Shown here in pieces: positions 1,888-27,539 of a stretch of DNA of 32,000 nucleotides (the stretch's first letter is position 1; every line of letters begins with the position of its first letter). A program made the position numbers and the translations under genes. Origin of the DNA: Pirellula staleyi DSM 6068. Lineage in GTDB: Bacteria > Planctomycetota > Planctomycetia > Pirellulales > Pirellulaceae. The notes beneath the pieces were generated by a model that was given only the letters and a program-made list of their open reading frames with translations, was not told where the DNA came from and did not search any database. The stretch spans positions 4,770,001-4,802,000 of the forward strand of contig CP001848.1 of the NCBI GenBank assembly GCA_000025185.1, in the 5' to 3' direction.

Positions 1888-1945
1888 AGCACTCTCACTC
1901 AATCTAGCCTCAAAATCGTCGACCGAAACACAGTCCCGCAGCTCG

Positions 1946-10809: not shown

Positions 10810-11562
10810 ATGAAGAACACGCTGCTGATCGCCGCTTTGGCCACAGGTTTGCTCGCTTTGAGCGTGAGCGAGTCGCAGGCCCAGTATGGAGCGAGCGGAA
10901 CTTCGAGCAGCAGCAGCGGGCTGTTTGGCAGTCGCACGCAGGGAAGCGGCATCTCTTCCCGAAGTGGAGGGGGCACTAGCAGCGGTGGCACCGGGGGCCT
11001 GGGTGACGCTGGAGCCGTGCAAGGTGACGAGCGCTATGTCCGCGGCAATCGCGACGCTGGTTCGTTCGTTGGCTCCGACTCGGCCGATACAGCACCAGTC
11101 GGCGTCTCGCAATCGAGTGGCGGACGTGGTGCTGCTGGCGGTGGCATTCAAAGCCTGTTCGGTGGCAGCGGCGGTTTTGCCGACTTCGCTCGCCAAAATG
11201 GATTCAATCCCAATCAAGGGGGCGGCAATCAATCGCGCACCCAGCTCCGCATTCCAATTCGCCTCGGCTTCACACCCGAGCCCACCAACATGGCCGGGTT
11301 TCAAACAAAGTTCGAAACGCGGCTGACACGCATCCCAGCACTCAAGCGTCTGGGACCTATCGATGTCGAGATGCTCGGCAACACAGCTATCCTGCGGGGA
11401 GTAGTGGCATCTGCTGAAGATCGCCAACTGGCTGAAGATTTGGCGATGATGGAACCGGAAGTGGCTGACGTTGATAACGAGTTGATCGTGGGTCCGGTGG
11501 AGTCCAAGGGCGAGGAACTCCCTGTCCCAGCGCCGAGCGACGACCCACTGTTGAAGAACTAA
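10810..11562 (+). CDS. Secreted Gly/Ser-rich protein with C-terminal BON domain
   Basis: Signal peptide MKNTLLIAALATGLLALSVSESQA, followed by ~150 aa of G/S-rich low complexity. The BON-like C-terminus reads IDVEMLGNTAILRGVVASAEDRQLAEDLAMMEPEVADVDNELIV. Confidence 0.75.
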   Translation: MKNTLLIAALATGLLALSVSESQAQYGASGTSSSSSGLFGSRTQGSGISSRSGGGTSSGGTGGLGDAGAVQGDERYVRGNRDAGSFVGSDSADTAPVGVSQSSGGRGAAGGGIQSLFGGSGGFADFARQNGFNPNQGGGNQSRTQLRIPIRLGFTPEPTNMAGFQTKFETRLTRIPALKRLGPIDVEMLGNTAILRGVVASAEDRQLAEDLAMMEPEVADVDNELIVGPVESKGEELPVPAPSDDPLLKN

Positions 11563-12505
11563 GTGGCGAACGATTCTCCGTAGGCACTTGTGGAGTCATT
11601 TCGACTGCCACATTCGCACCGGTGGGTGGCATCACTTGCTGCTGCTGAAATGCCGGAGCTGTTGCCAACGTTTGCGTCCGGACTTGGCCGGTTGGCGCTA
11701 CAGCCATACGCTCGGCCAGCGAACTGGGGACATGAATCGAAGTCGCCCGCAAGCTCTTGGGTGGCGTGCTGGAAACAGTCGTGGGATTGGTCGTGCCCAG
11801 CAGTTGCTCGTGCACCGATCGCGAGTCCCCCGGCAATTCGTGCGTTACATTCACAGCCCCCATCATTTGCGTCGGAACTTGCTCTTCGTACGAGATCTGC
11901 TTCACCGACGAATCGCTGTAAACCTTGGGCAGATTTGTCAATTGTGGGGTAGGTGGTTCCGACTGTTTTTCCTCAGAACCTGGTAGCAGGTTACGCGACT
12001 GCTGAGCCATCACCACCTTGCCACTGGAAGCGGTGAAAACTGGCACAAGACTGATCTGCTTACGAATGCCACCCACTTCATCCCACGGCACCCACACACT
12101 GTAACTGGGGCCCAAATCGGTCGGAGCAAAGTGGCTGCTGAATGTCTCCTGAGGAAACGCATAGCGACGATCGGGCGCCTGACTTGCCTTCTGCTCGGAT
12201 TGCGAATCGTCGTAAGCGTTCACCACCAACTGACCTTCGACGGCAATCGGATTGTTCATCTTTCCGTAGAAGTAAATCCGCCCACCAAAACCACGTGTCG
12301 GCTTTTTACCTGGCTCGCTATACATCGCTGGGGACCAGATCACGACCATTCGCTCGGGCGATTCAAACTTGCTCTCGGTCACCTCAGGTTCGGATTTCCA
12401 AAGCTTGAAATCCTTCTTCCACAACTCAGCCGGAGAGACACATCCGGTCGCAGCTGTCGTCACGAGGATCGCCAGTACCATCGCAATTTGAAAGTTCGTT
12501 TTCAT
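11387..12505 (-). CDS. Lipoprotein with folded N-terminal domain and long P/Q/S/T-rich tail, last gene of the secretion cluster
   Basis: ATG at 12505 gives MKTNFQIAMVLAILVTTAATGC, with lipobox A-T-G-C. It starts 75 nt downstream of the secretin stop on the same strand. The C-terminal ~200 aa is low complexity. Confidence 0.7.
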   Translation of the reverse strand: MKTNFQIAMVLAILVTTAATGCVSPAELWKKDFKLWKSEPEVTESKFESPERMVVIWSPAMYSEPGKKPTRGFGGRIYFYGKMNNPIAVEGQLVVNAYDDSQSEQKASQAPDRRYAFPQETFSSHFAPTDLGPSYSVWVPWDEVGGIRKQISLVPVFTASSGKVVMAQQSRNLLPGSEEKQSEPPTPQLTNLPKVYSDSSVKQISYEEQVPTQMMGAVNVTHELPGDSRSVHEQLLGTTNPTTVSSTPPKSLRATSIHVPSSLAERMAVAPTGQVRTQTLATAPAFQQQQVMPPTGANVAVEMTPQVPTENRSPLSSSTVGRRSALGQGVPRPWTPPDPRSTRYQRQPLPVPSSPNLQPVGDLQQMPLLPAG

Positions 12506-12580
12506 AGCCCACCTGGCTGCCACTTCTAGGAACATCGTGTTCTTGGCTTCACTGGTTCGACCGACAAGCAAATCAAACGC

Positions 12581-15500
12581 TTATCGATACATGCCACTTA
12601 CTGGCTGATAGGTCTGCTGCGGAATCGCTGGCTGAGGCGAGTATGGCGGAGCAGCTTGCGGCTGATACATCGGCCCCTGAACAGGTCGCTGCGGTTGCTG
12701 CGGCGGCACTTGATAGGCACCTTGCTGCGGAACAAAAGCTGCAGGAGCCACCATGTTCGCGCTGGGTCCGCCCGGAGGTGCCGCAAAATTCGCGGGCATC
12801 ACTGGCCCTTGTTGCTGCGGCATGGGCTGCGGCATCATCGGTTGATATTGGGGTGGATACTGCGGTCCTTGATACGGCACGCCACCAGCGGGCTGCACAT
12901 ACTGTGGCCGATTCATCTGGGGAGGCTGCATGGAGTTGCGAGCATCGATGCTCACCGGAGCCACTGGCTGAATTTGCTGAGGACGCAACACACTTGGAGG
13001 TTGCATCCCATTGTTCGGCCCTGGCGGAGGCGAGTTCTGGCCCATGGAAGGTGTCGCAGGCGTTGGTGCTTGTGGATCATAGACACCCGGTGGTGTCAGC
13101 TGAGGTGCACTGGGGTTATTGTCGGGGAAGATCAGCGGCGAAGCTTCCGAAGCAGGAGCTTGCGGCCCCGATCCGAGCAGCACATCGCCATGGATGTTCA
13201 CCACGTCGGCCATGCACCAACTCATCCGTTCCGATTCACGCATGTTCATCCATTCGATGTCTTCGTCGTTCTGCATGATGAATGGGGTGAGAATGATCAG
13301 CAGTTCGCGACGTTCGTCCGACACCGAATCGAAGCGGAACAAGCGACCAAGCACCGGGATATCCCCAAGGTATGGAACGCGGCGAGTCGACTCTTGTTGG
13401 TTCTTGGTAATCAAACCACCGATGATCACCGTTTGACCACTGCGAGCACTCACAGTCGTTTGGGCGGTGGCAATGCGAATTTGTGGCGAACGAATCACGT
13501 CGCCGTTGCTGTTGATCGAGATCGGAATACCTTCCGCTTCGGGACCAAGCTCCGACTTCTCCGCATCGATTTCCATCACGATCATTCCGTCGGGAGCCGT
13601 GCGTGGTGTCACGCCGAGGATAATACCGACGTTTTCTAGCACCGTATTGTTGATCGTGCCGTTGACGGTGAGTTGCGACGACGTGATGCGCGGCACGCGA
13701 GCACCGACTTGCACGAATGCAGGTTGGTTGTCGAGCGTTTGCACTTGCGGCCGGCTGATCACTTGCAGACGGCGCGACTGCTGGAGAGCTCGCACCAGCA
13801 CACTCACACTTTCGCTACTGGCCGAGAGGACAAGGCCGCCGTAACCGAGAGTTGGATCGGTGCGGCCAACCCCGAACGACGACAAACCTTGACCAGCGAC
13901 ACTTTCGCGAGTCGCCAGCGAGGTGGCATCGCTGTTGTTGCCGAGTGCAACGTTGTTGAACGGGAAACCGACGCTGCCGATACCACGATCGAACAGCAGC
14001 GAGTCTTGAATACCAAGCTCCACGCCGAGCTGCTCGACATCCGACAGCAGCACTTCAGCGATCATCACTTGGATGATCACCATCGGTGGCCGACGATCGA
14101 GATCTTCCACCACCTTCTTAATCTCGTCGAAGTAGCGTGGAGTCGCACTCACGATCAGGCTGTTGCTCACGATTTCAGGAACCACGATCACTTCACGCTC
14201 GAACTGTTCGAACTGCGTCGTGAGTTCGGCATTCTGCTGGCTCAAGTCGCGCTGATTCGTCAGCAGTTCGTTAATCGCTGTTGCCACATCCGCTGCTGGC
14301 GAGTTTCGCAGGCGATAGACCGTTGTCACTCGCTGACGAATATCTCCCTCATCGAGGCGCACCAAAATCTGATACACCACGTTGAGATCGCCCGTCGTGC
14401 CCGATGCCACGATGCTATTGGTACGCGTGTCGACCGAGAAACGGAGGGGAACCAGCGAACTATCTCCAGCACCGGTTGCCGTTTGCAGTCCGAACTGGCC
14501 TTGGTTCTGACCACCACCCTGTTGTTGCTGTCCGAAGAGGTTCTGCAAGGTCTCCGCCAGCGCGGTAGCGTCGCCATTTTCGATCGTGAAGACCTTGATT
14601 TGAGCTTCCGTGGCTGGCAAGGCATCCATCTGCTCAATCAGAGCCTGCATCAGCGGCATGCTTTGCGTTGGACCGGTGACGACAATCGAATTGCCACGTG
14701 GGTCGGCCGTGATTCGCATGTCGGACAAGATGCCCGACTCGAGTACACCGCGACCTTCACTATCGACTCGTAGTAGCTGCAGGTTGGTTGAGCGACGGGT
14801 GGCCGTGGCTGGCGTTTGTGCCCCTTGACCACTTTGCCCCTGTTGTTGCTGCTGTTGCCCTTGTTGCTGGCCAGCCCCTTGAATCTGACCGGTCACCGCT
14901 TCTTGCAGCACAGGGGCGAGCTCTTCAGCAACGGCATTCTTCAGCTTGAATATGCGCACTTCATTGGCACTCTCCGACGCTGCCACATCGAGCGTATCGA
15001 GCAGTTTTTGAACCTCGAGCAGATCCCGCTGGCTGGCCTGCACGATGAGACTGTTGGTGCGATACTCGGCGATCGTCAGGACGCGAGTCCCCAGGCCAGT
15101 CCGTGGATCGGTACCAAAACCGGGGCGATCGACAAAAAAGTTCCGGACCGTTCGTTCAGCATCAATCGACGACATGAACTTCAGTCGAAACACCTTCAGC
15201 TGCGATTCGGGCGAAACGGTTTGATCGAGTTTTTGGAGCAGTTCGACCACTGGTGGAATCGCTTCAGCGCGGCCGATGAGCATCAGAGCATTCGGCTTCA
15301 CCAAGGGAGTGATCGTGACTCGGCTCTGACGCGCCGAGAAGACCTGATCATAAATCGTGGCGACCAGGTCCGACAAAGCGCGACCGTCGACGTTCTTGAG
15401 CGTATAGATTTCGACAACCGGTTTGGTCTCTTCGCTCTGACGTTCGATTTCGTCGATGATTTTCAGAACACGTTCGACATCGGCCTTCTTACCACGCACC

Positions 15501-16525
15501 ACCATCACGTCGAGCCCTTCGAGGAACTCGATTTGCACGTCGCCAATTCGGCCGAGGCCGTCGTCGGCTGCAGCACCTTCTTCAGGAGCAGCTTCGCCGC
15601 CTGGAACGGCAGGGGGTGGAACAGCAGGACCTTCTGCCGGTGGAGCAGCGGGTGGTGCGGCACCACCATCGGCACCGGGCTGAAAGATCATGGTCATGAA
15701 TTCGCCGATGTGCTCGCGCTTACCTTCGGCTGTCGTCGGCATTCCTGCCGCTTTGATCAGCGAAATGGCGCGAGCTACGGTCATGGGGTCCGCTTTTTCG
15801 AGTGGCACAACAGCCGCCTGATCCCGCACGAGATCGCGTGGCCAATCAAGCACGCCAAGCAGTTTTTCCCAAGCGCGCCCTTGTCCCTTCGGAGCACTCA
15901 CCTGTACTTCACCCGCACGGCGATCGACTTTCAATCGAACTGGGGGGAGTTTTGGCGAGCGAAGTTCATATTCCGAGCTGTTGGTCGAGCTAGCCGTCGT
16001 GACCACGCGACGGGCTCCCAAACGTGTCAGAAGTTGTTCGAAGTCGCTGGCACCGGTGTTCCTGAGGCGATACGAAACCAGTTCCCCCATCGAACTGTCG
16101 ACGCTCTCTTGCGGCAGGGGGGTGATGCGCGTGGTCAGACCGTTCTCGCTGGCCTGCTGCTGTGTCAGGCGAATCGTCGCAGGAAGATCGGCTACCCAGC
16201 GTTCCACTTGTTTGTGGACATCGGTTGGAGCGACCAGCACGATTTGACGGGTGCGAGGATCGGCAGCGACACGGACGTCGGAACGCGAACGATAGTCGGC
16301 CTGCAGCTGATCGAGCGCCCATTGCAGATCGGCGCTGCCCACCGAATAGCCCTTCACCTGCACATCGGCAGGCTTGGACTGAGCCACAGGGGCCGCGGGT
16401 GTTGGCATCGGCACTTGAGCCGTCGCAGTCTGCCAGCATGCCAGAGCGGAAAGCATACCAACGGCAGCTACGCGCAGGCGAGAGTTGCGTTTCCAAGGAC
16501 TAGCGATGAGTCGCAGTGCGTTCAT
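12581..16525 (-). CDS. gspD: Secretin (GspD/PilQ family), 1314 aa, expanded
   Basis: Signal peptide from ATG 16525: MNALRLIASPWKRNSRLRVAAVGMLSALACWQTATAQ. At least five Secretin_N-type modules are visible (VEIYTLKNVDG.., LKVFRLKFMSS.., VRIFKLKNAVA.., IKVFTIENGDA.., TTVYRLRNSPA..). The secretin core reads LQVISRPQVQTLDNQPAFVQVG ... VPYLGDIPVLGRLFR ... ELLIILTPFIM. Confidence 0.92.
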   Translation of the reverse strand: MNALRLIASPWKRNSRLRVAAVGMLSALACWQTATAQVPMPTPAAPVAQSKPADVQVKGYSVGSADLQWALDQLQADYRSRSDVRVAADPRTRQIVLVAPTDVHKQVERWVADLPATIRLTQQQASENGLTTRITPLPQESVDSSMGELVSYRLRNTGASDFEQLLTRLGARRVVTTASSTNSSEYELRSPKLPPVRLKVDRRAGEVQVSAPKGQGRAWEKLLGVLDWPRDLVRDQAAVVPLEKADPMTVARAISLIKAAGMPTTAEGKREHIGEFMTMIFQPGADGGAAPPAAPPAEGPAVPPPAVPGGEAAPEEGAAADDGLGRIGDVQIEFLEGLDVMVVRGKKADVERVLKIIDEIERQSEETKPVVEIYTLKNVDGRALSDLVATIYDQVFSARQSRVTITPLVKPNALMLIGRAEAIPPVVELLQKLDQTVSPESQLKVFRLKFMSSIDAERTVRNFFVDRPGFGTDPRTGLGTRVLTIAEYRTNSLIVQASQRDLLEVQKLLDTLDVAASESANEVRIFKLKNAVAEELAPVLQEAVTGQIQGAGQQQGQQQQQQGQSGQGAQTPATATRRSTNLQLLRVDSEGRGVLESGILSDMRITADPRGNSIVVTGPTQSMPLMQALIEQMDALPATEAQIKVFTIENGDATALAETLQNLFGQQQQGGGQNQGQFGLQTATGAGDSSLVPLRFSVDTRTNSIVASGTTGDLNVVYQILVRLDEGDIRQRVTTVYRLRNSPAADVATAINELLTNQRDLSQQNAELTTQFEQFEREVIVVPEIVSNSLIVSATPRYFDEIKKVVEDLDRRPPMVIIQVMIAEVLLSDVEQLGVELGIQDSLLFDRGIGSVGFPFNNVALGNNSDATSLATRESVAGQGLSSFGVGRTDPTLGYGGLVLSASSESVSVLVRALQQSRRLQVISRPQVQTLDNQPAFVQVGARVPRITSSQLTVNGTINNTVLENVGIILGVTPRTAPDGMIVMEIDAEKSELGPEAEGIPISINSNGDVIRSPQIRIATAQTTVSARSGQTVIIGGLITKNQQESTRRVPYLGDIPVLGRLFRFDSVSDERRELLIILTPFIMQNDEDIEWMNMRESERMSWCMADVVNIHGDVLLGSGPQAPASEASPLIFPDNNPSAPQLTPPGVYDPQAPTPATPSMGQNSPPPGPNNGMQPPSVLRPQQIQPVAPVSIDARNSMQPPQMNRPQYVQPAGGVPYQGPQYPPQYQPMMPQPMPQQQGPVMPANFAAPPGGPSANMVAPAAFVPQQGAYQVPPQQPQRPVQGPMYQPQAAPPYSPQPAIPQQTYQPVSGMYR
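12584..13168 (-). repeat. Low-complexity coding region: ~195-aa Pro/Gln-rich C-terminal tail of the secretin
   Basis: The translation is dominated by P and Q with recurring Y/M/G/A, e.g. PQYPPQYQPMMPQPMPQQQGPVMP and QVPPQQPQRPVQGPMYQPQAAPPYSPQPAIPQQTYQP. Confidence 0.85.
14818..14880 (-). repeat. Poly-Gln/Gly linker coding stretch inside the secretin (GAGQQQGQQQQQQGQSGQGAQ)
   Basis: Mixed CAA/CAG/GGN codon run seen directly. A second Q/G-rich linker (FGQQQQGGGQNQGQFG) lies near 14491-14536. Confidence 0.85.
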
Positions 16526-16665
16526 AACAAAGCTTTCCGAGTAGCAGACTTCGGCGCGCAGCAATCGAGGGGACCGCGCGTTAAGGTCGTCGTACACGGA
16601 ATAATCGGCAAAGTTTGCCAAAGAGATAAGCGGATGTGGCAACTTTGCTAGAAGATTCGACTCGT

Positions 16666-16694
16666 CGTAAACGCATGATAATGAAGCGTTTACG
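16666..16694. promoter_or_regulatory. Perfect 9-bp inverted repeat with AT-rich 11-nt spacer in the gap upstream of the secretin gene
   Basis: cgtaaacgc (16666-16674), atgataatgaa, gcgtttacg (16686-16694). It lies in the 254-nt non-coding gap between the GspM-like stop (16780) and the secretin ATG (16525). It could be an operator or an RNA hairpin; function unknown. Confidence 0.3.
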
Positions 16695-16779
16695 TTCCGA
16701 ATAGGCGTACACGCACAACGTGCACCGGGGGGCTAGAGGCCCTGAAAGCCCTCCAGCCTATCACCCTAGTCATCCCAAA

Positions 16780-17979
16780 CTACGGCAGCAGCTGAGCTTG
16801 CTCGAGAACATCGCCTTTGCCCAGTCGATGTGGCTTTCCCTCGCTCACAAAAACGAAGTCACTTTCGCCTATCGACTCGACCACCCCCTTCACGCTGCCA
16901 ACCTGGAACGTCTGTCCTTCGGTCAAGCGGAGGGTCTGATTGGTAGGTCGAACATGCAGCCAAACTTCCCCTTGGCCCGAAATGCTTAGCACGGCTGTGA
17001 GTACCGTGAACTTGGCATGATCAAAGGCCAGACGGGCAGTTGGAGGAGGAGTTGGCGGAACATACGGAGGAGGTGGTGGAGGATCGGTCACCGTCACTTT
17101 CATCTTCGACTTCACGGTGGCGACAGGGGCTCCATCATCGCTGGCGGCGATTTCAAATTCGTAGGTGCCGACCTTCGCCGGACGGAACGTGAATTTACCA
17201 GTAGCGGGGTCGATCTTCGCTCCTTCAACTGAAGCCGATGCCAGGGCATAGCTCACTTTGTCGAGCGGATCGGGATCCGCAGCTTTAGCAGTCACCTCGA
17301 CAGAACGACCGATCGCAACGCGCTGATCGGAAACCCCCGAGAGCTTGGGAGGATTGTTCGCTGGTCCAAACAAATTGCGGCCAACGATGGACGAGCGATA
17401 CTCGTCGAGCGACGACAGCATCATCCGATCGCCTGGATTGGTAGAGATCGACGAACTATCGGGGCCGCCAACCAAGGAAATCGCTTCCACCGTCATCTGA
17501 ATCGACAGATTCTTCGAATCCTTCACCGGGCGGATCGTCAGTTTGCTGACACGGTGGAGCAAGTCGACTTCATAAATCGAGTAGAGCAGTTGTACCAGCT
17601 GATCAATCGAACCTTTGCCAGCAATGGTGAAAGTGTGGAGCTCGCCAATATCATCGAGCGGGCGCCGAGTCACAAAAGCGACGTCTTGATCGGTCAGTTT
17701 TGCCTTTTGGACGAGCTGAAAGAGCCAATTCTTGTAGCCCACTTCTGCTTCCGAAGAGTTGCGAGGCAGCGAGCGAGCTGCTAGTTCTTCGAGACGTAGC
17801 TCGGCTTGACGACCTTGCAATACTTCACGCTTTTGGGCGCTGATTTGCGATTCCAGCTCATCGATCCGCTTGCGTTTCGAAGCAAAGCTGGCATCGATCG
17901 ACGTGTAGAAGTAATAGCCTACGATCAGTACGAGCATGCTGCCGACACCGATCGCGAGGAGACGTTCGTTCTGTTTCAC
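16780..17979 (-). CDS. GspM/PilO-like inner-membrane protein fused to an Ig-like domain, poly-Pro linker and PilP/GspC-HR-like C-terminal domain
   Basis: N-terminal TM LLAIGVGSMLVLIVGYYFY, then a coiled coil (RIDELESQISAQKREVLQGRQAELRLEEL). A PilO-like core spans aa ~75-170. The Ig/cadherin-like segment (aa ~210-299) reads AKAADPDPLDKVSYAL..IDPATGKFTFRP..GTYEFEIAASDDG, followed by DPPPPPPYVPPTPPP. The C-terminal ~85-aa beta-rich domain is GEVWLHVRPTNQTLRLTEGQTFQVGSVKGVVESIGESDFVFV. The GTG start overlaps the upstream stop (GTGA at 17976-17979). Confidence 0.7.
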   Translation of the reverse strand: MKQNERLLAIGVGSMLVLIVGYYFYTSIDASFASKRKRIDELESQISAQKREVLQGRQAELRLEELAARSLPRNSSEAEVGYKNWLFQLVQKAKLTDQDVAFVTRRPLDDIGELHTFTIAGKGSIDQLVQLLYSIYEVDLLHRVSKLTIRPVKDSKNLSIQMTVEAISLVGGPDSSSISTNPGDRMMLSSLDEYRSSIVGRNLFGPANNPPKLSGVSDQRVAIGRSVEVTAKAADPDPLDKVSYALASASVEGAKIDPATGKFTFRPAKVGTYEFEIAASDDGAPVATVKSKMKVTVTDPPPPPPYVPPTPPPTARLAFDHAKFTVLTAVLSISGQGEVWLHVRPTNQTLRLTEGQTFQVGSVKGVVESIGESDFVFVSEGKPHRLGKGDVLEQAQLLP

Positions 17980-19565
17980 TGAACACCTCCCTTAGCTGCA
18001 GCGGCTGGCTTGGCTGGGGCTGATACTGGTGTGCTGGCAGCAGGCTGCGACTTCTCTTGCTTCTCGGCTTTCGCCTTTTCCTCGGCAGCACGTTCGGCTG
18101 CGATCGCTTCCATTTGCTCGGGGAAGATCTTGAAATCCTCCTTAAACCGCCACTTTAAATCGGGCGATTCAGCGTCGTATTTGGCTCCACTTCCCGAAAC
18201 GTTGTAGCCGTGGCTGCGAGCCTGCACTTCCATCCGATTGATCACGCCCGTTTCGCTCGCGAGTCCTTGCACGATCAGCTGACCACCACCGGGACGTTCG
18301 CCAACCGGCTGAATCGATGTCGCGACCAACTCTTCTACGCGGGCCTCTTTGGAAGATGGCATCTTGCGTGAGAGTGCATCAAGAGCATCGAGCCAAGTGA
18401 TGTCTCCCACTTCAAATTTTTCGAGCTGCGCGACATCCTCGCGAGGCTTCTTAAGCTTAATGGCGTCGTCTTTGGTGCGCCGCAGTTCGTTGCTAAGCGA
18501 GCTGATCTTGGTGTCGAGGTTTCCCAGTTCCCAGTACAAAAACATTGCGAACGACGCGACCAGCGAAAGGATCGCCGCTGCGGCCAGCACATAGACTCGC
18601 CGCTTATTGGGTGGAATCGGCCGCTTGCGAGGCGAAAGGAAGTCGATTGTTTCGGCGGTCTGCGAGCATTCTCCTTCTAGCATGCCTAGCAGCGGCGCGA
18701 ATGTTCCCGGAAACTCGGGCATGCTCTTGAGCTCACTCGTCACTTCGACGAGCGAGAAAGGATCGAGAAGCTGAACTTCCAGCGAGAGCTCTTTTTCCAG
18801 TGTCCCCTTCACCGCAGCGTGGTGGAGACCATCGCCAAAAATGATCACTTCATCGACCCGACGACCACCGAGCTGATTTTGCGCGGCAATCATCGTGCGG
18901 CGAATTTCACCGACGAGCGACTTCGACTGGATCGCGGGATCGAGCGAGGCTGGGAGTCGCACGGTGCGTGGGAAAATCACCTGTGGACCGATGAGCACCG
19001 ACAGATCGGCGTCGCTCGGCAAGAGGTCGATGAGCATCCGGCAACGCTCGTCGGCATGACGCTTGGCCAGCAAGTTGGCAGCAGCGACTGGACGGAGCGC
19101 GACACGCTTGAGCGACAGTTGTGCCGCCTGACAAACCGATTGCGTTTGTTTCAGAATTTCGGGGGAGATGGCTGCGGCGAGCACATTGGTGCCACCATCG
19201 GTCCCTTTACCGAGTTCGATATAGTCGAGCGGCCAGTCGTCTCCCAGCGTGGTGAACTGACGCAGCGCTTGAAAGCGCACCAGATCGGCAAGTTCTTCGG
19301 GGGGAGCAGGGGGAGTCGAGAGGAACCGGAGTTCGATACTGGACCGGCCCACGGCGACCAGCGTTTCGCTGCGCGCGAGCCCTTCTTTTTGCACGAGCTC
19401 GCTGAGCTTCGTCGCCACTTCCGAATCGGAGACAGTGGTCGCTCCATCGGCGGGAAGCAAGCTGATCGTCCATGCACGATCGATCGCCACTCCGCGCGCT
19501 CGCTTTCGGCCAGCCAGCACACGCAGCTCTTTGGCATCCCATTCAATCGCAACTAGTCGAGACAT
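17976..19565 (-). CDS. GspL-like assembly protein: cytoplasmic PilM/actin-like domain + TM + PilN-like periplasmic domain
   Basis: The N-terminal ~320 aa resembles PilM/GspL-cyto (LVAIEWDAKELRVLAG.., DLLPSDADLSVLIG.., IIFGDG). A single TM (VYVLAAAAILSLVASFAMFLYW) sits at aa ~324-345. It is followed by a coiled coil and a small alpha/beta domain, ending in an Ala/Lys/Glu-rich tail. Confidence 0.75.
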   Translation of the reverse strand: MSRLVAIEWDAKELRVLAGRKRARGVAIDRAWTISLLPADGATTVSDSEVATKLSELVQKEGLARSETLVAVGRSSIELRFLSTPPAPPEELADLVRFQALRQFTTLGDDWPLDYIELGKGTDGGTNVLAAAISPEILKQTQSVCQAAQLSLKRVALRPVAAANLLAKRHADERCRMLIDLLPSDADLSVLIGPQVIFPRTVRLPASLDPAIQSKSLVGEIRRTMIAAQNQLGGRRVDEVIIFGDGLHHAAVKGTLEKELSLEVQLLDPFSLVEVTSELKSMPEFPGTFAPLLGMLEGECSQTAETIDFLSPRKRPIPPNKRRVYVLAAAAILSLVASFAMFLYWELGNLDTKISSLSNELRRTKDDAIKLKKPREDVAQLEKFEVGDITWLDALDALSRKMPSSKEARVEELVATSIQPVGERPGGGQLIVQGLASETGVINRMEVQARSHGYNVSGSGAKYDAESPDLKWRFKEDFKIFPEQMEAIAAERAAEEKAKAEKQEKSQPAASTPVSAPAKPAAAAKGGVQ

Positions 19566-19733
19566 GCGAAACGTATTTCTTTAGAGCGCGACATGTGAGG
19601 TTCGAGCCAATCCCTGCCGACGATCGGTCCGTAGGTAGTGCGCATCCATGTGCCACTAAGTTCCAACGCTCCCGAGCCAGCAAAGTTTCGCATGCTTACG
19701 CAAATTCTGCCACGAATTTATGCGTTCACGCCG

Positions 19734-21305
19734 CTATTGCTCGGTGTAATCGACCCCCAGGGTCTCGAGGGCGAACCCACGTCCCAGGTGGCTGATATCT
19801 CTCCAGAATACTAAGCGGGGGGCGGCAGTTGTAGCATCGAAAATCGCTTCGGCCCGACTTGCTGCCGATCCGCCCTGGAAATATCCCACCACCTGCGCCC
19901 GAAACACCTGTCCGCCACCACAAATGAAGGGTTGCAGCAGTTTCATCTCGTCGAGGGTCACCACCCCTTCGGCAAGCAGCCAGGTTTCATATTGCCGCCC
20001 CGGCTGGTCGGTTCCGGGATCAGCCGAACGCCGCGTGATGATTTGATTGACGATATCCTCGTCCATCCCCGGAATACCCCGCAGAATCGTTGCAGATGCT
20101 TGATTCACGTTAATCCGTCCCGGAATGGTGGTCGCCGGGTTGATCGTGGCCCCATCCATCAGCTGCGGGAGAAAAATGTTCATCGCGCCGATCTCGGCGG
20201 GAATCGGCGAATTGAGAACAACCGATGAGATCTCGCCCGAAAACCGAACGCGTGTTTTTGCTCCCACGAGATCGAGCAATTGCGACAAAGGGAAGCGGGC
20301 GGGGCGCGTCATGTCGAGCGTCCCTTGCGCGCCACTGGTGGCCTCTTGCGAGCCGGTGTAGGGACCATTCTGCCGGTAAGCGACGATGAAGGTCGCCCAT
20401 TCCGCAGGGAACTTTTCCGAGAGGCTGGTGTAGAGCGTGTTGAGGTCGTCGTTGTTGAGATAGATGCGGGGCGAACCATCGGCCGAGAGATTGCTTTCCA
20501 TGCTGTAGAGTGTCAGGTACGACGCCCAGCCACTTCCGGAATAGCTTCCGTCGTCAGCCACTCCTTGCGACGAGTTAGCACTTTCACCCTCTGCTTCGTG
20601 CGGATCGATTGTGCCGTTGCGATTCACATCAGCGCCAAACAGCAGTGCCGGAGTGACGCCGCGCACCAGTAGTAGTTCCTCGACCGTTTCCAGGGGGCCG
20701 TTCTTGCAAGCATAGGCCGGAGAAAGTCCGCTGTAGTAATCGATCTCGGCACCCAAATCACGCGCCTCGTCGTCTTCGTCAATCCAGTCGAGGATCGCAT
20801 CGGCAACATCTTCGGTCATCCCTGGCAAGGCCATGAGGAGGTTCTTCCCCGAGCCTTCCGACTGCGCTTCGAGTGCCAGCAGAGTGTTGAGATTCAGCCG
20901 CGTCGATTCATCCTCGAGTCCGTAGCGAAGGCCACCGTAGTTGCCAGAAGAATCGAGCGACGGTGCGACGACAGCAAAACTGCCGCGAAAATTTGGATCG
21001 GGATCGTCGATGACCGTGCGACCTTTGAACAGGGTCGGGTTATCGTAGATCCCTCCTTGTTCAAGACGAATATCGGGTGTGCTGAAGAGAAACAGCTTCA
21101 CACTATCAAGCCCCGAGTCGACGAGCGCCCGTGTTTGCGTTTGGCGAATCGAAAGCTCAGCCGACTCTTGATGGGCGAGCATCAGATCGCTGAAGGCATA
21201 GCTGCCGAGTGCCAAAAAGGCCACCACCACCAGCACCATGATCAGCACCATGGCCGATCGTTGCTTGGGGATCTTTCGACTAACCTGCGCGCGAGTGCCG
21301 GTCAT
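19734..21305 (-). CDS. gspK: Minor pseudopilin GspK-like (523 aa)
   Basis: The hydrophobic N-terminus lacks Glu+5 (SAMVLIMVLVVVAFLALGSYAF). GspK-typical blocks are RLNLNTLL, LPGMTEDVADAILDWIDEDDEARDLGAEIDYY and GRINVNQASATILRGIPGMDEDIVNQIITRR. The ATG overlaps the upstream stop (ATGA at 21302-21305). Confidence 0.85.
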   Translation of the reverse strand: MTGTRAQVSRKIPKQRSAMVLIMVLVVVAFLALGSYAFSDLMLAHQESAELSIRQTQTRALVDSGLDSVKLFLFSTPDIRLEQGGIYDNPTLFKGRTVIDDPDPNFRGSFAVVAPSLDSSGNYGGLRYGLEDESTRLNLNTLLALEAQSEGSGKNLLMALPGMTEDVADAILDWIDEDDEARDLGAEIDYYSGLSPAYACKNGPLETVEELLLVRGVTPALLFGADVNRNGTIDPHEAEGESANSSQGVADDGSYSGSGWASYLTLYSMESNLSADGSPRIYLNNDDLNTLYTSLSEKFPAEWATFIVAYRQNGPYTGSQEATSGAQGTLDMTRPARFPLSQLLDLVGAKTRVRFSGEISSVVLNSPIPAEIGAMNIFLPQLMDGATINPATTIPGRINVNQASATILRGIPGMDEDIVNQIITRRSADPGTDQPGRQYETWLLAEGVVTLDEMKLLQPFICGGGQVFRAQVVGYFQGGSAASRAEAIFDATTAAPRLVFWRDISHLGRGFALETLGVDYTEQ

Positions 21306-22462
21306 GGCGAGGCTCCCGAGGAAGCTGCCGCATCGGCGCTGCCAGAATTTGCGGCCGCTTCTTCTTCCGCCGCAGCGGTTGCTTCGCGCGTGGCAGCGGG
21401 AATGGCATGCGGCAAGTGCACGACCATGCGAAATTGACGCGTCGCATTGGCTGCGGCAATCAGCGATGGATTCTCTGAGTCTTCAGCCGTTTCTGGATCG
21501 ACACCGACGGTCGTCAGGACCAGTACAATTTCGACAGCCACTGGCAAGCCACCGGCAGAATCGCTATTCCATTCGGTCAGCCACTGCGAGCCATCAAAGT
21601 ACTGCACCTGCATCGACACCACTTCTTCGGCGAGCAACTTCGCGTCACTTGTCGAGACAGAGAGATCGCCGTTCATCTCGGCCCAAGTAGTGACCGCCCG
21701 ATCGAGTTCACGCCGCATGAGTCCACGCCCTTGCCCGGTGCTGCTCGGCTCGGCCTGAGAGGCACCACCCAGTGCGCTACTTGAAAGGCTGGCAGATTCC
21801 TCGCTCCGAACAAAATAAGTCACCGTCTTCACATCGCTCGGAATATCAACCACCCCCAAGTTGCTCGCGCTGTCGATGAGCGTTTGATACTGATCGACTC
21901 GTGGAAGCTTGCTCACATCGACTGAGAACTCGGTCGATGTTCCGTAGAGTCCGACAACAGGCAATGCCAGACCGGTATCTTCCGCTTCAGGATCGGTAGC
22001 GGCAGGGACCGCTTGCGGCGTAGCGCCACTCGCAGCATCTCCGGCCGAGTCACCCGAATCATCACTCCCGGTTCCTGTTCCGCCGCTGGTATTTGATCCC
22101 GAGTCGGCACCATCACCTGTGCCACTGTTGCTCGCTGAATTGGAAGCATTGGTCGCCGCTGTTTGTCCATTGGCTGCCACGAGCGCGAGCCCCGAAAGAT
22201 CGGGAGGGGAGTATTGCACGGCACTCTTCAGGTCGTCGGCCATGTGACGCAGCAGCGCGCGAGCGAGCTGCGCATCTTCCACATTGGTGCGCCGGGCGTC
22301 GAACATGCGAAAGTAGACATCAATCGCCATTCCGACCGCCGACAGCACCAGTACCGACAGTGCGAGCGCGAGAATGAGTTCGAGCAGCGTCATGGCGCGG
22401 CGAATGTTGCGCGAGCGATGGTGGCGGCTAAAGCAAAGGTGATTGTGCGAACTAAGAGCCAC
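21302..22462 (-). CDS. Minor pseudopilin (GspJ position) with prepilin-type N-terminal domain and G/S/T/D-rich insert
   Basis: Prepilin motif RRA/MTLLELILALALSVLVLSAV, with Glu at +5. The low-complexity insert reads NASNSASNSGTGDGADSGSNTSGGTGTGSDDSGDSAGD. The start is uncertain. GTG 22462 gives a 23-aa leader and an 11-nt overlap with the upstream gene. ATG 22393 would give no leader. The track start at 22657 lies inside the upstream gene. Confidence 0.7.
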   Translation of the reverse strand: MALSSHNHLCFSRHHRSRNIRRAMTLLELILALALSVLVLSAVGMAIDVYFRMFDARRTNVEDAQLARALLRHMADDLKSAVQYSPPDLSGLALVAANGQTAATNASNSASNSGTGDGADSGSNTSGGTGTGSDDSGDSAGDAASGATPQAVPAATDPEAEDTGLALPVVGLYGTSTEFSVDVSKLPRVDQYQTLIDSASNLGVVDIPSDVKTVTYFVRSEESASLSSSALGGASQAEPSSTGQGRGLMRRELDRAVTTWAEMNGDLSVSTSDAKLLAEEVVSMQVQYFDGSQWLTEWNSDSAGGLPVAVEIVLVLTTVGVDPETAEDSENPSLIAAANATRQFRMVVHLPHAIPAATREATAAAEEEAAANSGSADAAASSGASP

Positions 22463-23090
22463 GGCGACCTCCGCCGCCCGGAGGCGTTGAGAAATCGGGG
22501 ACCTGAGGAAGCGATGGTGTTCCGCCCCCGCCAGTATTGTTTCCGCCAGCACCGTTGCCGGTTCCACCTCCAGAACTGTTTCCTCCACCAGTGCCACCTG
22601 TTCCGCCTGTACCACTGTCACCCGTGTCGTCAGTGCCATCGCTTCCTGCCGAGGCACTTTGGCCCGACTGCGAAGCCGCGAGTGCAGCAGCTTCTTCCGC
22701 TGCGGCTTCAGCCGACTCTTGCACTGTGGGGTCGATCATCCAGCGCGACAGTGCAAACCTCACCGGTCGTCCAGCAGCGTCGGCACTTTGCTCGACTGTC
22801 ACCGTTACGGCGAGCAATCCCTCCTGCTCAGCCGCTGCAACTTCGACGCTGTAGAGCCATTCCCCCGAATCATCTATCGGCGAGGCGCTCACCGCTTCCG
22901 AGGGTTCGATGCCACTCGTTACTTCCGCCATCTTGGTTTCACACAAGATCTCGGCGGTGGTCAGATCACGTGCCCGTGCAGCTGATCGCGAACCGAGCCG
23001 AAGCAGCTCCCCCAGGACAGCCAGTGATCCACCGAGGATTGCAATCGCCAGCATCACCTCCAGCAGCGAGAGTGCTCGGCGGCTGTTCAT
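22452..23090 (-). CDS. Minor pseudopilin (GspI position) with ~80-aa Gly-rich C-terminal tail
   Basis: ATG 23090 gives MNSRRA/LSLLEVMLAIAILGGSLAVLG, a short basic leader with Glu at +5. The C-terminal tail reads GSDGTDDTGDSGTGGTGGTGGGNSSGGGTGNGAGGNNTGGGG..PPGGGGRRGS. An alternative ATG at 23186 would give a 38-aa His-rich leader. Confidence 0.75.
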   Translation of the reverse strand: MNSRRALSLLEVMLAIAILGGSLAVLGELLRLGSRSAARARDLTTAEILCETKMAEVTSGIEPSEAVSASPIDDSGEWLYSVEVAAAEQEGLLAVTVTVEQSADAAGRPVRFALSRWMIDPTVQESAEAAAEEAAALAASQSGQSASAGSDGTDDTGDSGTGGTGGTGGGNSSGGGTGNGAGGNNTGGGGTPSLPQVPDFSTPPGGGGRRGS

Positions 23091-23258
23091 AACCCAACGA
23101 GTGCGGCGCTTTGTTGCGTGGCTTGCCACGCGATTAGCGTGCCGATGGTGGTGGAAGATGAGTGGCATGATGACAACTGACTGCATTCGCTGCTTTAGAA
23201 TTCAATGTTCGATAAAATATTCTCGGCGATGTTATCCCCAGCGTTTTCTAGGGAAGAG

Positions 23259-23945
23259 CTACGGCATCAAATTCTCGACTTCACCGATATCGCTCACCAT
23301 GCTCGAACCGGTTAAGCCACGCAGCGATACTCGCATTCCCACGTTGCGTTCACCGGTCAGGATCACAAACGCATCGCTCGAACTCCCATCGGGATAGAAC
23401 AAAATCGGACGCGACCAATCGCTACGTCCAAATCCCGAAGTCTCCGCTTCCACAAGAGCCGAGCGGCCTTCGAGCACGGCATCGCCCCCTGCAAAAATAA
23501 CGCCATCGGGAAGAAGCGCGCCCCCAGCAGGAACCTCGGGCGAACTTTGTGCGGCGCCGCTGGTTAAAAACTGCGACTGAGCCATCTCTGCCTGGTTGCT
23601 TTCGATCGACTCATCGCCACTTGCCCAGGGAAGCACCTGATAACCGGAGCCCCCGAGTTGGTAGCGGAACATTTGAATCTGTCCCGAGCGCATCGCGCGG
23701 ACATGGGCGCGGGTAAACTCCGCGCGAACCTTGTCGGCCCCAGTACGGAGACGCTGATCCTTGAGAGCATTCAGCAGCGCCGGAGAAGCGATGGCGGCGA
23801 CTACAATCAAGATTGCCATCACCAGCAGGATTTCAACGAGCGTGAAACCAGTCCGCAACCCAGAGCTTCTCGGTTTTCGTACGCTCCTCGCGCGACGAAG
23901 CTGCGCCGCTTGCAGGAAAATCGCACTCCAACCGAGAAAGCACAT
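23259..23945 (-). CDS. Minor pseudopilin (GspH position), prepilin-type N-terminal methylation domain
   Basis: Motif LRTG/FTLVEILLVMAILIVVAAIASPALL, followed by a GspH-like segment (LRTGADKVRAEFTRAHVRAMRSGQ). ATG 23945 gives a 32-aa leader. An in-frame TTG four codons before the cleavage site is an alternative start. Confidence 0.75.
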   Translation of the reverse strand: MCFLGWSAIFLQAAQLRRARSVRKPRSSGLRTGFTLVEILLVMAILIVVAAIASPALLNALKDQRLRTGADKVRAEFTRAHVRAMRSGQIQMFRYQLGGSGYQVLPWASGDESIESNQAEMAQSQFLTSGAAQSSPEVPAGGALLPDGVIFAGGDAVLEGRSALVEAETSGFGRSDWSRPILFYPDGSSSDAFVILTGERNVGMRVSLRGLTGSSMVSDIGEVENLMP

Positions 23946-23978
23946 CGGGGATGATCTCCGTCGTTCCGCGCGATCCGC

Positions 23979-24407
23979 TTACGGATCGAGCATTACATCG
24001 TCGTCGGAACCACTATTGCCATCGGGACCACTCGACCAAATGCGATAGGTGTTGGCCGTCAGCTGTTCGTAGTTGTAAGGGTTGCTCCAAGGATCGAGAG
24101 GAATCTCTTTCTCGAGATAAGGCCCCGCCCATTTCGCAGGGTTCTTCAGGTCAGCAGGAGCATTCTTGAGCGCTTCAAAACCTTGCTGCGTTGTCGGAGC
24201 AGTGCCGATGTTTAGCGTGTAGGCATCGATTGCCGTCGAAAGGGCCTTGATTTGGTTCTTGGCACCATCGCGATTTGCGTTCTGCTGAATCCGAACGAAC
24301 GACACCGTTACGAGCGATCCCAGAATCACCAGGATGGCCATCACGAGGAGCACTTCCATCAGTGTAAAGCCAGCACGTTTACGACGGCGGTTCAAACGGT
24401 TGTACAT
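23979..24407 (-). CDS. gspG: Major pseudopilin GspG
   Basis: MYNRLNRRRKRAG/FTLMEVLLVMAILVILGSL, then GspG-typical blocks NQIKALSTAIDAYTL, WAGPYLEKEIPLDPWSNPYNY and SSGPDGNSGSDDD. ATG 24407 is preceded by aagga 8 nt upstream. The track start at 24461 adds 18 residues. Confidence 0.9.
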   Translation of the reverse strand: MYNRLNRRRKRAGFTLMEVLLVMAILVILGSLVTVSFVRIQQNANRDGAKNQIKALSTAIDAYTLNIGTAPTTQQGFEALKNAPADLKNPAKWAGPYLEKEIPLDPWSNPYNYEQLTANTYRIWSSGPDGNSGSDDDVMLDP

Positions 24408-24483
24408 CGATACGATCCTTCTGTTGAGAGTAACTGAATGTTGTGTTTTGTTGTGCTTCACTAGCGAAACATGACAGGGACGA

Positions 24484-25686: not shown

Positions 25687-25817
25687 GACAGATTGAGAAC
25701 GTCTAAAGCGAGAGAAACCAAGGCAAAAGGACGGCTACTGAGTGAATGCTTGATGGTGAGGAAAGGGAGATAAGCTCAAGACCGCTAGGATCTACGTGGA
25801 ATCAGTGACAAAACTTA

Positions 25818-27539
25818 CTAGCCCCGGTTAATGAGCATCGTGTGATCGGCCTTGGCAGCGCGAGTCACTTCTTCCACGCTCGTTCCGCCGACCAACACTT
25901 TTTTCCATCCATCCTGACGCAGCGATCGCATTCCTTCTTTACTGGCAGCCTGCATGATTTTCCAGCTGCTGGCGCGGTCGCAGGCCAGTTGGCGAATCTC
26001 GTTCGTGGTGACGAGCAGTTCATAAATGCCCATACGCCCGCGATAGCCCGTGTTGCGACATTCGCGACATCCCACACCTTTGAAGAGGGGACGACTTTGC
26101 AAATCTTCCCAAGGGAAATCGCTCGGAACATCGTCGCGAACTGCGTCGTACGGCTGTTTGCAATGCTTGCAGAGTCGACGGACAAGACGCTGAGCCATCA
26201 CTGCTTCTACGGTGCTGGCCACCAAGAACGGCTCGACTCCCATATCGGTGAGTCGAGTGTAGGCGCTCGCGGCGTCGTTGGTGTGGAGCGTACTGAACAC
26301 CATGTGACCGGTGAGCGACGCTTGAATCGCATTTTCTGCAGTTTCCAGATCGCGAATTTCGCCGACGAGCACCACGTCAGGATCGTGACGCAAAATGCTG
26401 CGGAGCGAAGCAGCAAACGTCAAACCGATCTTGTGATGCACTTGAATTTGATTGATCCCTTCGAGCTGATATTCCACCGGATCTTCGGTGGTAATGATCT
26501 TCACGTCGGGCGTATTGATCTCGATGAGCGAGCTGTAAAGTGTCGTCGTTTTGCCGCTACCGGTCGGACCTGTGACCAGCACAATCCCGTGGGGCAGATC
26601 GATGAGTTCGCGATACACCTTGTAGGTGTCCGGCTCCATGCCGATCTTTTGCAGATCGAATACCATCGAGCCTTTATCGAGAATACGCATCACCAAACCT
26701 TCGCCGTGAATCATCGGGATGACCGAAACACGGACGTCGATTTCGCGACCTTTCACCTTCAGCTTCATGCGTCCATCTTGCGGCAGTCGCTTCTCCGCAA
26801 TGTTCAGACGCGACATGATTTTGAGGCGGCTGACAATCGCCGCTTCGAACCGATGAATCTCGGGCGGAATCGGCTGCGACTGCAGCATGCCGTCGACGCG
26901 GTAGCGAATCGCCAGCCCCGAAGGCTGCGACTCGATATGCACGTCGCTCGCGCGAAGTTCGATCGCCTCGAGCAAAATTTCGTTCACCAGCCGAACCACC
27001 GAGGCTTCCTGGGCCATTTCGGAAAGTTCGCTGCCGTCGGTTTCGATATCACCGACGAGTTCCAGCGCTGCCTCTTCTTGTGCTTGCGCGACCAGCCCTT
27101 CCACCGTTTCGCTACCGACACCGAGATGCCGCTTAATCAGCTTGGCAATTTCGGCTCGGGCGGCGAGGACTGGCATCACCGCAAGTCCGGTCGCGGCAGA
27201 GACTTCGTCGAGCGGATAGAGGTCAAAGGGATTGCTCGTCGCAACCACCAATTGGCCATCGGTTTTGCTGATCGGAAAGAGCGACTGACGGTGGATCAGC
27301 CGATGCGGGAAGATTTTTAGGAGCGATAGATCGATCTCGGCTTCGGTAAGATCGACGTACTCAATCCCCACTTCATCCCCAAGAGCGCGCAGCGCAGCTT
27401 CTTCACTCACAAACCCAAGCTGAATAGCAGCTTCAATTTGCCGGGCGCCATCGCCGTGGCCGTTAGCCTGGCCACGTGCCTGGTCGAGTTGGCGCTTGTC
27501 GATCAATCCGCGCCGAAGAAGGATTTCGCAGGCTTCCAT
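25818..27539 (-). CDS. gspE: Type II secretion ATPase GspE/PilB family
   Basis: Walker A GPTGSGKTT, Walker B/Asp box DPDVVLVGEIRD, His box TGHMVFSTLHTND and tetracysteine CKHCKQ..CRECRNTGYRGR. The N-terminus is a T2SSE_N-type domain. An in-frame stop two codons upstream fixes ATG 27539 as the start. Confidence 0.95.
   Translation of the reverse strand: MEACEILLRRGLIDKRQLDQARGQANGHGDGARQIEAAIQLGFVSEEAALRALGDEVGIEYVDLTEAEIDLSLLKIFPHRLIHRQSLFPISKTDGQLVVATSNPFDLYPLDEVSAATGLAVMPVLAARAEIAKLIKRHLGVGSETVEGLVAQAQEEAALELVGDIETDGSELSEMAQEASVVRLVNEILLEAIELRASDVHIESQPSGLAIRYRVDGMLQSQPIPPEIHRFEAAIVSRLKIMSRLNIAEKRLPQDGRMKLKVKGREIDVRVSVIPMIHGEGLVMRILDKGSMVFDLQKIGMEPDTYKVYRELIDLPHGIVLVTGPTGSGKTTTLYSSLIEINTPDVKIITTEDPVEYQLEGINQIQVHHKIGLTFAASLRSILRHDPDVVLVGEIRDLETAENAIQASLTGHMVFSTLHTNDAASAYTRLTDMGVEPFLVASTVEAVMAQRLVRRLCKHCKQPYDAVRDDVPSDFPWEDLQSRPLFKGVGCRECRNTGYRGRMGIYELLVTTNEIRQLACDRASSWKIMQAASKEGMRSLRQDGWKKVLVGGTSVEEVTRAAKADHTMLINRG

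Follow-up and report, generated by a model that had tools for sequence, protein, structure and literature searches.

The window analysed here, a 32,000-nucleotide stretch of the genome of the planctomycete Pirellula staleyi DSM 6068 (contig CP001848.1, positions 4,770,001 to 4,802,000; coordinates below are counted from its first nucleotide), contains a run of 11 genes that we read, with considerable confidence, as an operon encoding a type IV filament machine that falls in the T2SS (type II secretion system) class. The machine would comprise GspE, GspF and the major pseudopilin GspG, a tip formed by GspH, GspI, GspJ and GspK, a platform protein L, a second platform protein M in which GspM is joined to the HR part of GspC, a secretin, and a lipoprotein. 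In scans with profile hidden Markov models (HMMs), the GspE, GspF and GspD models were each the top-scoring model for their protein; further evidence comes from the pseudopilins, from predicted structures of L and M, from relatives of M, and from conservation of the gene order.

Organization and Conservation of the Operon

On the minus strand, from position 27539 down to 11387, 11 head-to-tail open reading frames (ORFs) follow one another, all intact (Table 1). The K and J genes overlap by four bases (ATGA, 21305-21302), as do the M and L genes (GTGA, 17979-17976). An earlier account made from the letters alone, referred to here as the sequence-only reading, had recorded both overlaps along with the 11 co-directional genes and their coordinates; to these a third can be added, in which the probable start of J (GTG at 22462) covers the stop of I by 11 nt. 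Scanning against Pfam and NCBIfam gave the order GspE-F-G-H-I-J-K-L-M-secretin-lipoprotein and thereby upheld the order, with its late secretin, that had been proposed. Every ORF used for that proposal is a real gene, with one correction: the ORF listed for J exceeds the gene by about 65 codons, its start most probably being the GTG at 22462, to judge from a GGAGG located 6 nt upstream. The M protein is identical (100%) to Psta_3665 of P. staleyi DSM 6068.

A synteny comparison, which had been suggested as a check, found the order (LTXXQ)-E-F-G-H-I-(J)-K-L-M-D-lipoprotein-BON-DUF3352 kept in about 14 genomes of the Pirellula clade, with protein identities of 40-80%. Because the order recurs across these genomes, the cluster is not a product of chance, and the 11 genes are a real, conserved operon. 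The possibility of a pseudogene or relic cluster was considered as well and is ruled out by the intact ORFs and the synteny. In loci of Rhodopirellula, Stieleria, Rubripirellula and Allorhodopirellula, and in locus L031, the block from G to M is retained without a neighbouring secretin gene, and several of these loci also lack E and F next to the block. Loci with a non-adjacent secretin (L013, L015, L017, L019, L021, L027, L028 and L031) include a metagenome-assembled genome labelled Rhodopirellula and other Pirellulaceae and Pirellulales loci, and the M protein of L031 is of a short form described below. Terminator-like hairpins bracket the operon; such sites are, overall, no more numerous than expected by chance.

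Table 1. Features of the P. staleyi cluster, listed in the direction of transcription; arrows mark processing sites in signal motifs.
Feature	Position	Strand	Basis and remarks
Terminator-like hairpin, 12-bp stem	27611..27637	-	between upstream LTXXQ gene and gspE start; 5' limit; pattern match only
gspE, assembly ATPase, 573 residues, N-terminal MshEN	25818..27539	-	Pfam T2SSE E 2.6e-138; MshEN E 7e-18
gspF, polytopic inner-membrane platform, 400 residues	24484..25686	-	Pfam T2SSF, two stretches, E 3.7e-60
gspG, major pseudopilin, prepilin motif RAG↓FTLMEV	23979..24461	-	TIGR01710 117 bits; Pfam T2SSG E 2.5e-26; N_methyl
gspH-like minor pseudopilin, TG↓FTLVEI	23259..23945	-	N_methyl 21.3 bits
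gspI-like minor pseudopilin, RRA↓LSLLEV	22452..23186	-	TIGR01707 GspI E 1.6e-7, profile 2-98/101, below cut-off
gspJ-like minor pseudopilin, RRA↓MTLLEL	21302..22462 (ORF as listed, 21302-22657)	-	Pfam T2SSJ 29.3 bits, gathering score 28
gspK, large minor pseudopilin, QRS↓AMVLI, no Glu+5	19734..21305	-	T2SSK_1st 64.2 bits; HHH_3; NF037980 GspK E 5e-22
L protein	17976..19565	-	actin-fold residues 1-301; helix 321-386; ferredoxin-like 391-480; Ala/Lys/Glu/Pro tail
M protein	16780..17979	-	
M N-terminal half, residues 1-169, GspM/PilO-type ferredoxin-like	17473..17979	-	model H3-69, H75-93, E, E, H125-137, E, E
M motif R-N-L-F-x-P, residues 201-206	17362..17379	-	R201 invariant; N202, F204, P206 at least 90% conserved in 51 homologues
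M cadherin-like Ig domain, residues 212-298	17086..17346	-	Foldseek PDB top: cadherins/protocadherins E 1e-7
M C-terminal 7-strand β-domain, residues 321-387	16819..17019	-	pLDDT ~90; read as GspC/PilP-type HR
Giant secretin, ORF of 1353 residues	12581..16642	-	Pfam Secretin_N, six stretches, E 1.7e-57; Secretin E 6.5e-42
Lipoprotein, lipobox AATG↓C	11387..12571	-	conserved N-terminal ~200 residues; variable low-complexity tail
Terminator-like hairpin	11313..11337	-	~50 nt past lipoprotein stop; 3' limit; pattern match only

ATPase, Platform Protein and Pseudopilins

For the ATPase, TIGR02533 GspE was the top model (615.6 bits, with PilB at 593 bits); the translation contains a CxxC...CxxC arrangement, and E. 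coli GspE aligned to it in tblastn with 50% identity over 386 residues. The platform protein scored best among six models on TIGR02120 GspF (332.7 bits). GspG passes the equivalog cut-off of TIGR01710 (88.85 bits), is 36% identical to E. coli GspG (tblastn), and carries the loop SSGPDGNSGSDDD, which is of the GPDG...DDD type; its true start is probably Met19.

Class III signal peptides can be read from the translations of the pseudopilins. Glutamate occupies position +5 in G (G↓FTLME), H (G↓FTLVE), I (A↓LSLLE) and J (A↓MTLLE) and is missing from K (S↓AMVLI), so that the GspG loop and the Glu-less GspK noted previously are both confirmed. In the minor set, K and J lie above Pfam thresholds, and H and I below model cut-offs. 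The matches of the H-like protein, all sub-cut-off, were to TIGR01708 GspH (E 2e-8), XpsH (E 3e-8) and TIGR02596 (E 1.5e-8). The last of these models, ‘Verru_Chthon cassette protein D', is matched as well as GspH is, which hints at a GspH-like pseudopilin lineage common to the PVC (Planctomycetes-Verrucomicrobia-Chlamydiae) superphylum. In the I-like protein, residues 150-244 form a low-complexity tail of 95 residues rich in Gly, Ser, Ala and Thr, and in the J-like protein an insert rich in Ala, Gly, Ser and Asp (residues 153-231) is accompanied by a tail that is also of low complexity. Long extensions of this kind, which the sequence-only reading had emphasized, are present in I, J, L, M, the secretin and the lipoprotein.

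Protein L

L was modelled with AlphaFold on an alignment of 51 homologues (predicted local distance difference test, pLDDT, 86). The model runs from an actin-like cytoplasmic domain through a long helix, made up of a membrane segment and a coiled coil, to a ferredoxin-like periplasmic domain and a disordered tail; residues 473-529 are of low complexity. In a Foldseek search of the PDB, PilM came first (5eou and 2ych, E about 1e-18, template modelling (TM) score 0.69-0.71), followed by FtsA and then by the cytoplasmic domain of EpsL/GspL (1yf5, E 4e-10, TM 0.69). Sequence profiles pointed the same way: the family consensus reached 35.8 bits against Pfam PilM_2, exceeding the gathering score of 27, and matched TIGR01175 pilM with E 7e-13. 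Against the Akkermansia Amuc_1101 PilM-like family (NF045709) it scored 61 bits where the cut-off is 650, which would make L only a distant relative of that family. NCBI names it ‘Fimbrial assembly family protein'.

The domain order of L, as modelled, is that of GspL, and its cytoplasmic domain appears PilM-like in sequence and in predicted fold. The description of L as PilM fused to a PilN-like part is therefore a fair one, and the model, the Foldseek ranking and the PilM HMM matches bear it out. The broader label that went with it, a hybrid of T2SS and type IV pilus (T4P), contributes little. It is overstated, because GspL itself corresponds structurally to PilM plus PilN, and because the two halves of M lie closer to GspM and GspC.

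The first β-hairpin of L (residues 1-18, 19512-19565) reads AIEWDAKELR, with E8 and D10 invariant in the 51 homologues. At this position PilM and other actin-fold ATPases have the phosphate-binding motif DxGxxxxK. Judged from its sequence, L, like GspL, may not bind ATP.

Protein M

The AlphaFold model of M (pLDDT 88) shows a membrane helix and coiled coil (residues 3-69), a ferredoxin-like domain with the order α-β-β-α-β-β (75-169), a short helix, an RNLF-x-P motif, an immunoglobulin-like (Ig) domain, a Pro-rich linker (280-330) and a β-domain. For the N-terminal half, NF040576 GspM_XpsM gave E 7.7e-4 with the window protein and 5e-9 with the family consensus, all scores lying below the 60-bit equivalog cut-off.

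The C-terminal half was approached through its relatives. A profile of the β-domain, searched against 1.84 billion representative proteins, found 878 proteins in two length classes, one of about 400 residues with the Ig domain and one of 300-335 residues without it, and joined the two classes at E 1e-15 to 1e-20; the short-class M sits in the same slot of one E-F-G-H-I-(J)-K-L-M cluster. Among 45 short-class relatives, GspM_XpsM matched the N-terminal half of 33 and NF041515 GspC_delta matched 19 (profile positions 27-172, best E 2e-6), with one more matched by TIGR01713 GspC. In each member or consensus whose coordinates were examined, the GspC_delta match spans the linker and the β-domain. 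The short-class consensus matched GspM with E 8e-8 and GspC_delta with E 3.8e-7, and it also matched PilO over profile positions 1-136 of 145. When the Ig domain was cut out in silico, the consensus of the window subfamily matched GspC_delta (E 0.0065), as did a homologue with 49% identity (E 0.01), and the register was the same in each case. GspM and GspC models give higher scores for the two halves of M than PilO and PilP models do.

HR domains of GspC, GspB and PilP have one fold at 10-17% sequence identity and bind the secretin's N0 domain (PMC9239104; PMC3169554), and because identity within the family is so low, direct sequence matches of the M β-domain are faint. Searched against PDB sequences, the C-domain profile gave the HR domain of GspC (3OSS chain C) E 1.6, and a broader profile E 0.25; the designed β-propellers that topped this search were rejected as spurious. 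Scanning the domain, the consensus and the 45 relatives against Pfam produced faint matches in single members to T2SSB (3.8e-4), T2SSC (0.029) and PilP (0.015). Alignments made with hhalign between the C-domain and individual GspC, HofP and GspB sequences of E. coli gave no information, and a search for homologues of E. coli HofP returned only close enterobacterial HofPs, many of them frameshifted, with which hhalign gave nothing. The RNLF motif occupies the position relative to the β-domain that RDPF occupies in E. coli HofP, a PilP-type lipoprotein. In the Ig region, Pfam He_PIG, Big_9 and Cadherin all matched below threshold, and the Ig domain is an insertion specific to the Pirellula clade.

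On the strength of the model and of these relatives, M is best described as a GspM–GspC(HR) fusion whose halves are separated, in the Pirellula clade, by the Ig domain and a proline linker. The sequence-only reading had proposed PilO fused to a PilP/HR-like domain. Its fusion survives, by way of the relatives; its choice of names does not, since the GspM and GspC models score better, and it had missed the Ig domain. The absence of a separate gspC, which it had also reported, would follow from the same arrangement, because the HR part of GspC is fused into M. Neither gspC, gspN nor Peptidase_A24 was found in Pfam scans of the flanking ORFs of the window, and tblastn with E. coli GspO, GspC, GspL and HofM-P gave no match in the window, in keeping with the earlier statement that gspC, gspN and gspO/pilD are missing from it. 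Canonical GspL and GspM accompanied by a nearby gspC were not what these searches found.

Secretin and Lipoprotein

The secretin is about twice the usual length, and its probable start is Met40, at 16525. Fragment scans recognized five solid Secretin_N domains (residues 410-474, 483-556, 562-673, 683-765 and 773-853) and three weak ones (112-153, 190-269 and 278-404), several of the N domains being broken by poly-Gln/Gly or Ala/Pro stretches; the β-barrel domain occupies residues 952-1123. The C-terminal 223 residues are 23% Pro and 15% Gln, and low-complexity Pro/Gln stretches lie at 314-369, 569-626, 687-733 and 1188-1352. The N-terminal 400 residues gave no PDB, Pfam or NCBIfam match.

The lipoprotein, whose start is probably Met23 at 12505, matched nothing in Pfam, NCBIfam or the PDB. 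Its gene lies directly 3' of the secretin gene in 13 related loci (35-53% identity), and this position suggests a secretin partner or a pilotin-like protein. The lipoprotein ORF on the minus strand and a BON ORF on the plus strand (10792-11562) converge with an overlap of about 175 nt at 11387-11562, in which the low-complexity tail of the lipoprotein is antisense to the region coding for the BON domain. The same overlap is seen in tblastn alignments of two further loci, L006 and L009, and part of what had been called a disordered tail may be shaped by the gene on the opposite strand.

Which Machine the Operon Encodes

Several results weigh against assignment to the T2SS class. The ATPase and the secretin fall just under the equivalog cut-offs of GspE (about 15 bits short of 630) and GspD (TIGR02517, the top model for the secretin, 350.1 bits for a cut-off of 351.35), and the GspH and GspI matches are weak. 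L falls on PilM models, and no GspL model matched it in the HMM scans. M of the window itself gave no GspC_delta match, even with the Ig domain removed, so its HR assignment is transitive, by way of sequence profiles matched by its relatives. HMM and fragment scans recognized no N0/STN-type domain at the N-terminus of the secretin, the putative docking partner of M. No prepilin peptidase gene turned up in the window or in 28 related loci (E. coli GspO as tblastn query; Pfam scans of the flanks), and no substrate gene is evident at the cluster.

A type IVa pilus machine is not what the gene content describes: the alignment proteins are fused into two genes, and HMM scans of the cluster and its flanking ORFs returned no PilT, PilA-type pilin or PilY1. 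No AMIN domain was among the hits, and the pilT_fam and PilA models scored far below the Gsp models. We nevertheless considered it possible, if unlikely, that the machine builds a long, non-retractile surface fibre, a T4P-like adhesin or planctomycete fibre with the GspG-like protein as its subunit. L is PilM-like and not GspL-like and weakly matches the Amuc_1101 pilus family, the PilB score of the ATPase (593 bits) is close to its GspE score (616 bits), and T2SS pseudopilins such as PulG can form surface fibres when overproduced. The subunit itself argues the other way: its score exceeds the equivalog cut-off for GspG, and the GPDG...DDD loop is present. In addition, H, I, J and a Glu-less K make up the tip complex of a T2SS, and the halves of M match GspM and GspC models.

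Somewhat less probable still is that the secretin and platform serve as a nozzle that releases exopolysaccharide, slime or holdfast material. In favour of this, P. staleyi uses a holdfast for surface attachment, its secretin is of unusual size and has Pro/Gln-rich regions, and the C-terminal half of M matches a GspC model of the deltaproteobacterial type. T2SS-type secretins (GspD/PilQ family) of cyanobacteria and myxobacteria were recently reported to be required for slime secretion (PMC12475490); that paper mentions neither Planctomycetes nor GspC, GspL or GspM. The operon contains no genes for polysaccharide synthesis or export, the only glycosyltransferase being an ArnT/PMT-like one located 1.5 kb upstream with two other transcription units intervening, and the complete, conserved pseudopilus set would be superfluous for a passive nozzle. 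A competence pseudopilus for DNA uptake is very improbable: the components are generically related to Com and Hof systems and HofQ aligns to the secretin C-domain (tblastn), but scores on ComGA and ComGC models fall far short of those on the Gsp models, genes for ComEA, ComEC and DprA are absent from the window, and the HHH motifs of K belong to the T2SSK family itself. Surface fibre, nozzle and DNA uptake all have less support than the T2SS reading.

Proposed Mechanism of Secretion

As a T2SS, the machine would work as follows. A GspE hexamer, acting via GspF, would polymerise GspG beneath the H-I-J-K tip into a short pseudopilus, which would push folded periplasmic proteins, most likely exoenzymes, out through the secretin; the prepilins would be cleaved by a peptidase whose gene lies outside the cluster, at another genomic site. 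In E. coli, heterotrimers of GspC, GspL and GspM connect the ATPase to the secretin (bioRxiv 10.64898/2026.05.07.723501). Here these would be replaced by a two-chain unit of L and M, with L binding the ATPase in the cytoplasm and pairing in the periplasm with the GspM module of M, while the HR domain of M would reach the base of the secretin and dock on its N-terminal domains. The lipoprotein would assist or decorate the secretin.

An enlarged periplasm has been described in planctomycetes (PMC11131199), and the Ig spacer, the Pro/Gln linkers and a stack of five to eight N-domain rings may serve to lengthen the periplasmic parts across it. It is a long shot that these lengthened parts, together with the poly-Gln inserts and the Pro/Gln tail of the secretin, are a dedicated periplasm-spanning adaptation, with the giant secretin as the protein core of the crateriform pits or of the base of the pole fibres. 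A Pirellulaceae strain capable of external fucoidan degradation shows up-regulation of ‘Type II Secretion system' proteins (PMC11685898), which would fit a role in exoenzyme secretion, as circumstantial evidence.

Comparison With Known Secretion and Pilus Systems

Like the proteobacterial T2SS (Gsp/Pul/Eps/Xcp), the Pirellula cluster has GspE, GspF, a GspG with the calcium-loop motif, a tip set with a Glu-less K, bitopic platform proteins resembling L and M, a probable HR domain and a GspD-type secretin, and it has no retraction ATPase. Unlike that system, it has the secretin gene last; it lacks a free GspC bearing a PDZ or coiled-coil region, and only the probable HR part is present, fused to GspM; L resembles PilM in sequence and M has the Ig insert; the secretin is about twice as long, with five to eight N domains and a Pro/Gln tail; and gspO, gspN, gspA/B and a recognisable pilotin are missing from the cluster. 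The T2SS of deltaproteobacteria and myxobacteria supplies the best NCBIfam match for the linker and β-domain of the M family, NF041515 GspC_delta, although about half of the 311-position model is covered, the scores are 15-30 bits where the cut-off is 150, and the Pirellula domain is fused to GspM instead of free-standing.

The PilM-N-O-P complex of type IVa pili also brings together an actin-like domain (PilM), ferredoxin-like domains of the PilN/PilO type borne on coiled coils, and a β-domain of the HR kind directed toward the secretin, and the RNLF of M parallels the RDPF of the PilP-type HofP. In contrast to these pili, the PilM- and PilN-like parts are fused in Pirellula too, as they are in GspL, a lipid-anchored PilP, PilA, PilT and PilY1 are missing from the cluster, and the pilin set is that of GspG to GspK. 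Secretins lengthened by extra stacked N-domain rings occur elsewhere: the PilQ of Thermus thermophilus, an organism with a wide envelope, is one, although it belongs to a T4P and DNA-uptake system, has no Pro/Gln tail, and is related only at the level of the secretin family. The chlamydial T2SS, from the same PVC superphylum, is likewise a non-proteobacterial, T2SS-like system that is atypical or generic by standard models (PMC6668835; PMC4793230); unlike it, since it apparently lacks minor pseudopilins and GspL/M (PMC6668835), the Pirellula set is full.

Flanking Genes

The flanking ORFs have matches unrelated to T2SS, namely LTXXQ/Spy-like, ArnT/PMT-like glycosyltransferase, BON, DUF3352, dehydrogenase, RNase III, ThiI-like, LRR, DUF3500 and two Cys/Met-metabolism enzymes. 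Three of them lie beside the cluster in about 10 Pirellula-clade genomes: the Gly-rich BON protein (10792-11562, plus strand), the DUF3352 protein with a signal-peptide-like N-terminus (8695-10629, minus strand), and an LTXXQ (Spy/CpxP-like) periplasmic protein (27807-28754, minus strand). These neighbours may be accessory factors or substrates. The ArnT/PMT_2-type glycosyltransferase, an ORF of 698 residues at 29093-31189 on the same strand, lies 1.5 kb upstream and is not evidently in the operon. Tandem genes for pyridoxal phosphate (PLP)-dependent enzymes of Cys/Met metabolism (385 and 401 residues; 745-3151, minus strand) are unrelated to the cluster.

Novelty and Implications

Searches of the literature turned up no paper describing this planctomycete system, its M-C fusion or its secretin, and no functional study of the system, in line with the sequence-only reading, which knew of no substrate, fibre or structure assigned to the planctomycete versions. 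In automated annotation the genes already carry labels of type II secretion or fimbrial assembly. No planctomycete T2SS was reported by systematic surveys. TXSScan in 2016 detected a T2SS outside Proteobacteria in only one genome (PMC4793230), and the main text of a 2019 survey of type IV filaments does not discuss a planctomycete T2SS (PMC6668835); the ‘PIST001' entry in the supplement to that survey is a Tad system of P. staleyi and not this cluster. Natural PilO-PilP fusions in T4P (P. putida Q88CU9) were noted in 2011 and argued for a 1:1 ratio of GspM to GspC (PMC3169554). Because such fusions had already been noted, the principle of fusing these modules is an established one, and multi-ring secretins likewise have precedents. 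The cluster is an uncharacterised variant of the known T2SS machine, and introduces no new kind of system and no new principle.

Knowledge of T2SS structure and mechanism is almost entirely proteobacterial, and the Pirellula operon would offer a complete, conserved T2SS from the PVC superphylum. The covalent joining of GspM to an HR domain would give independent evolutionary support to a 1:1 stoichiometry of M and C, and also to a unit of C, L and M as the link between ATPase and secretin, and a platform of two proteins would be a simpler target for structural studies. With its doubled secretin and its spacer domains, the cluster hints at how machines of this kind may scale to a wide periplasm. 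Were the secretin indeed the core of the pits or of a fibre base, planctomycete surface structures that have long gone unexplained would gain a molecular identity. For the Pirellulaceae, which are important degraders of algal polysaccharides, the cluster is an obvious candidate route by which their exoenzymes may leave the cell.

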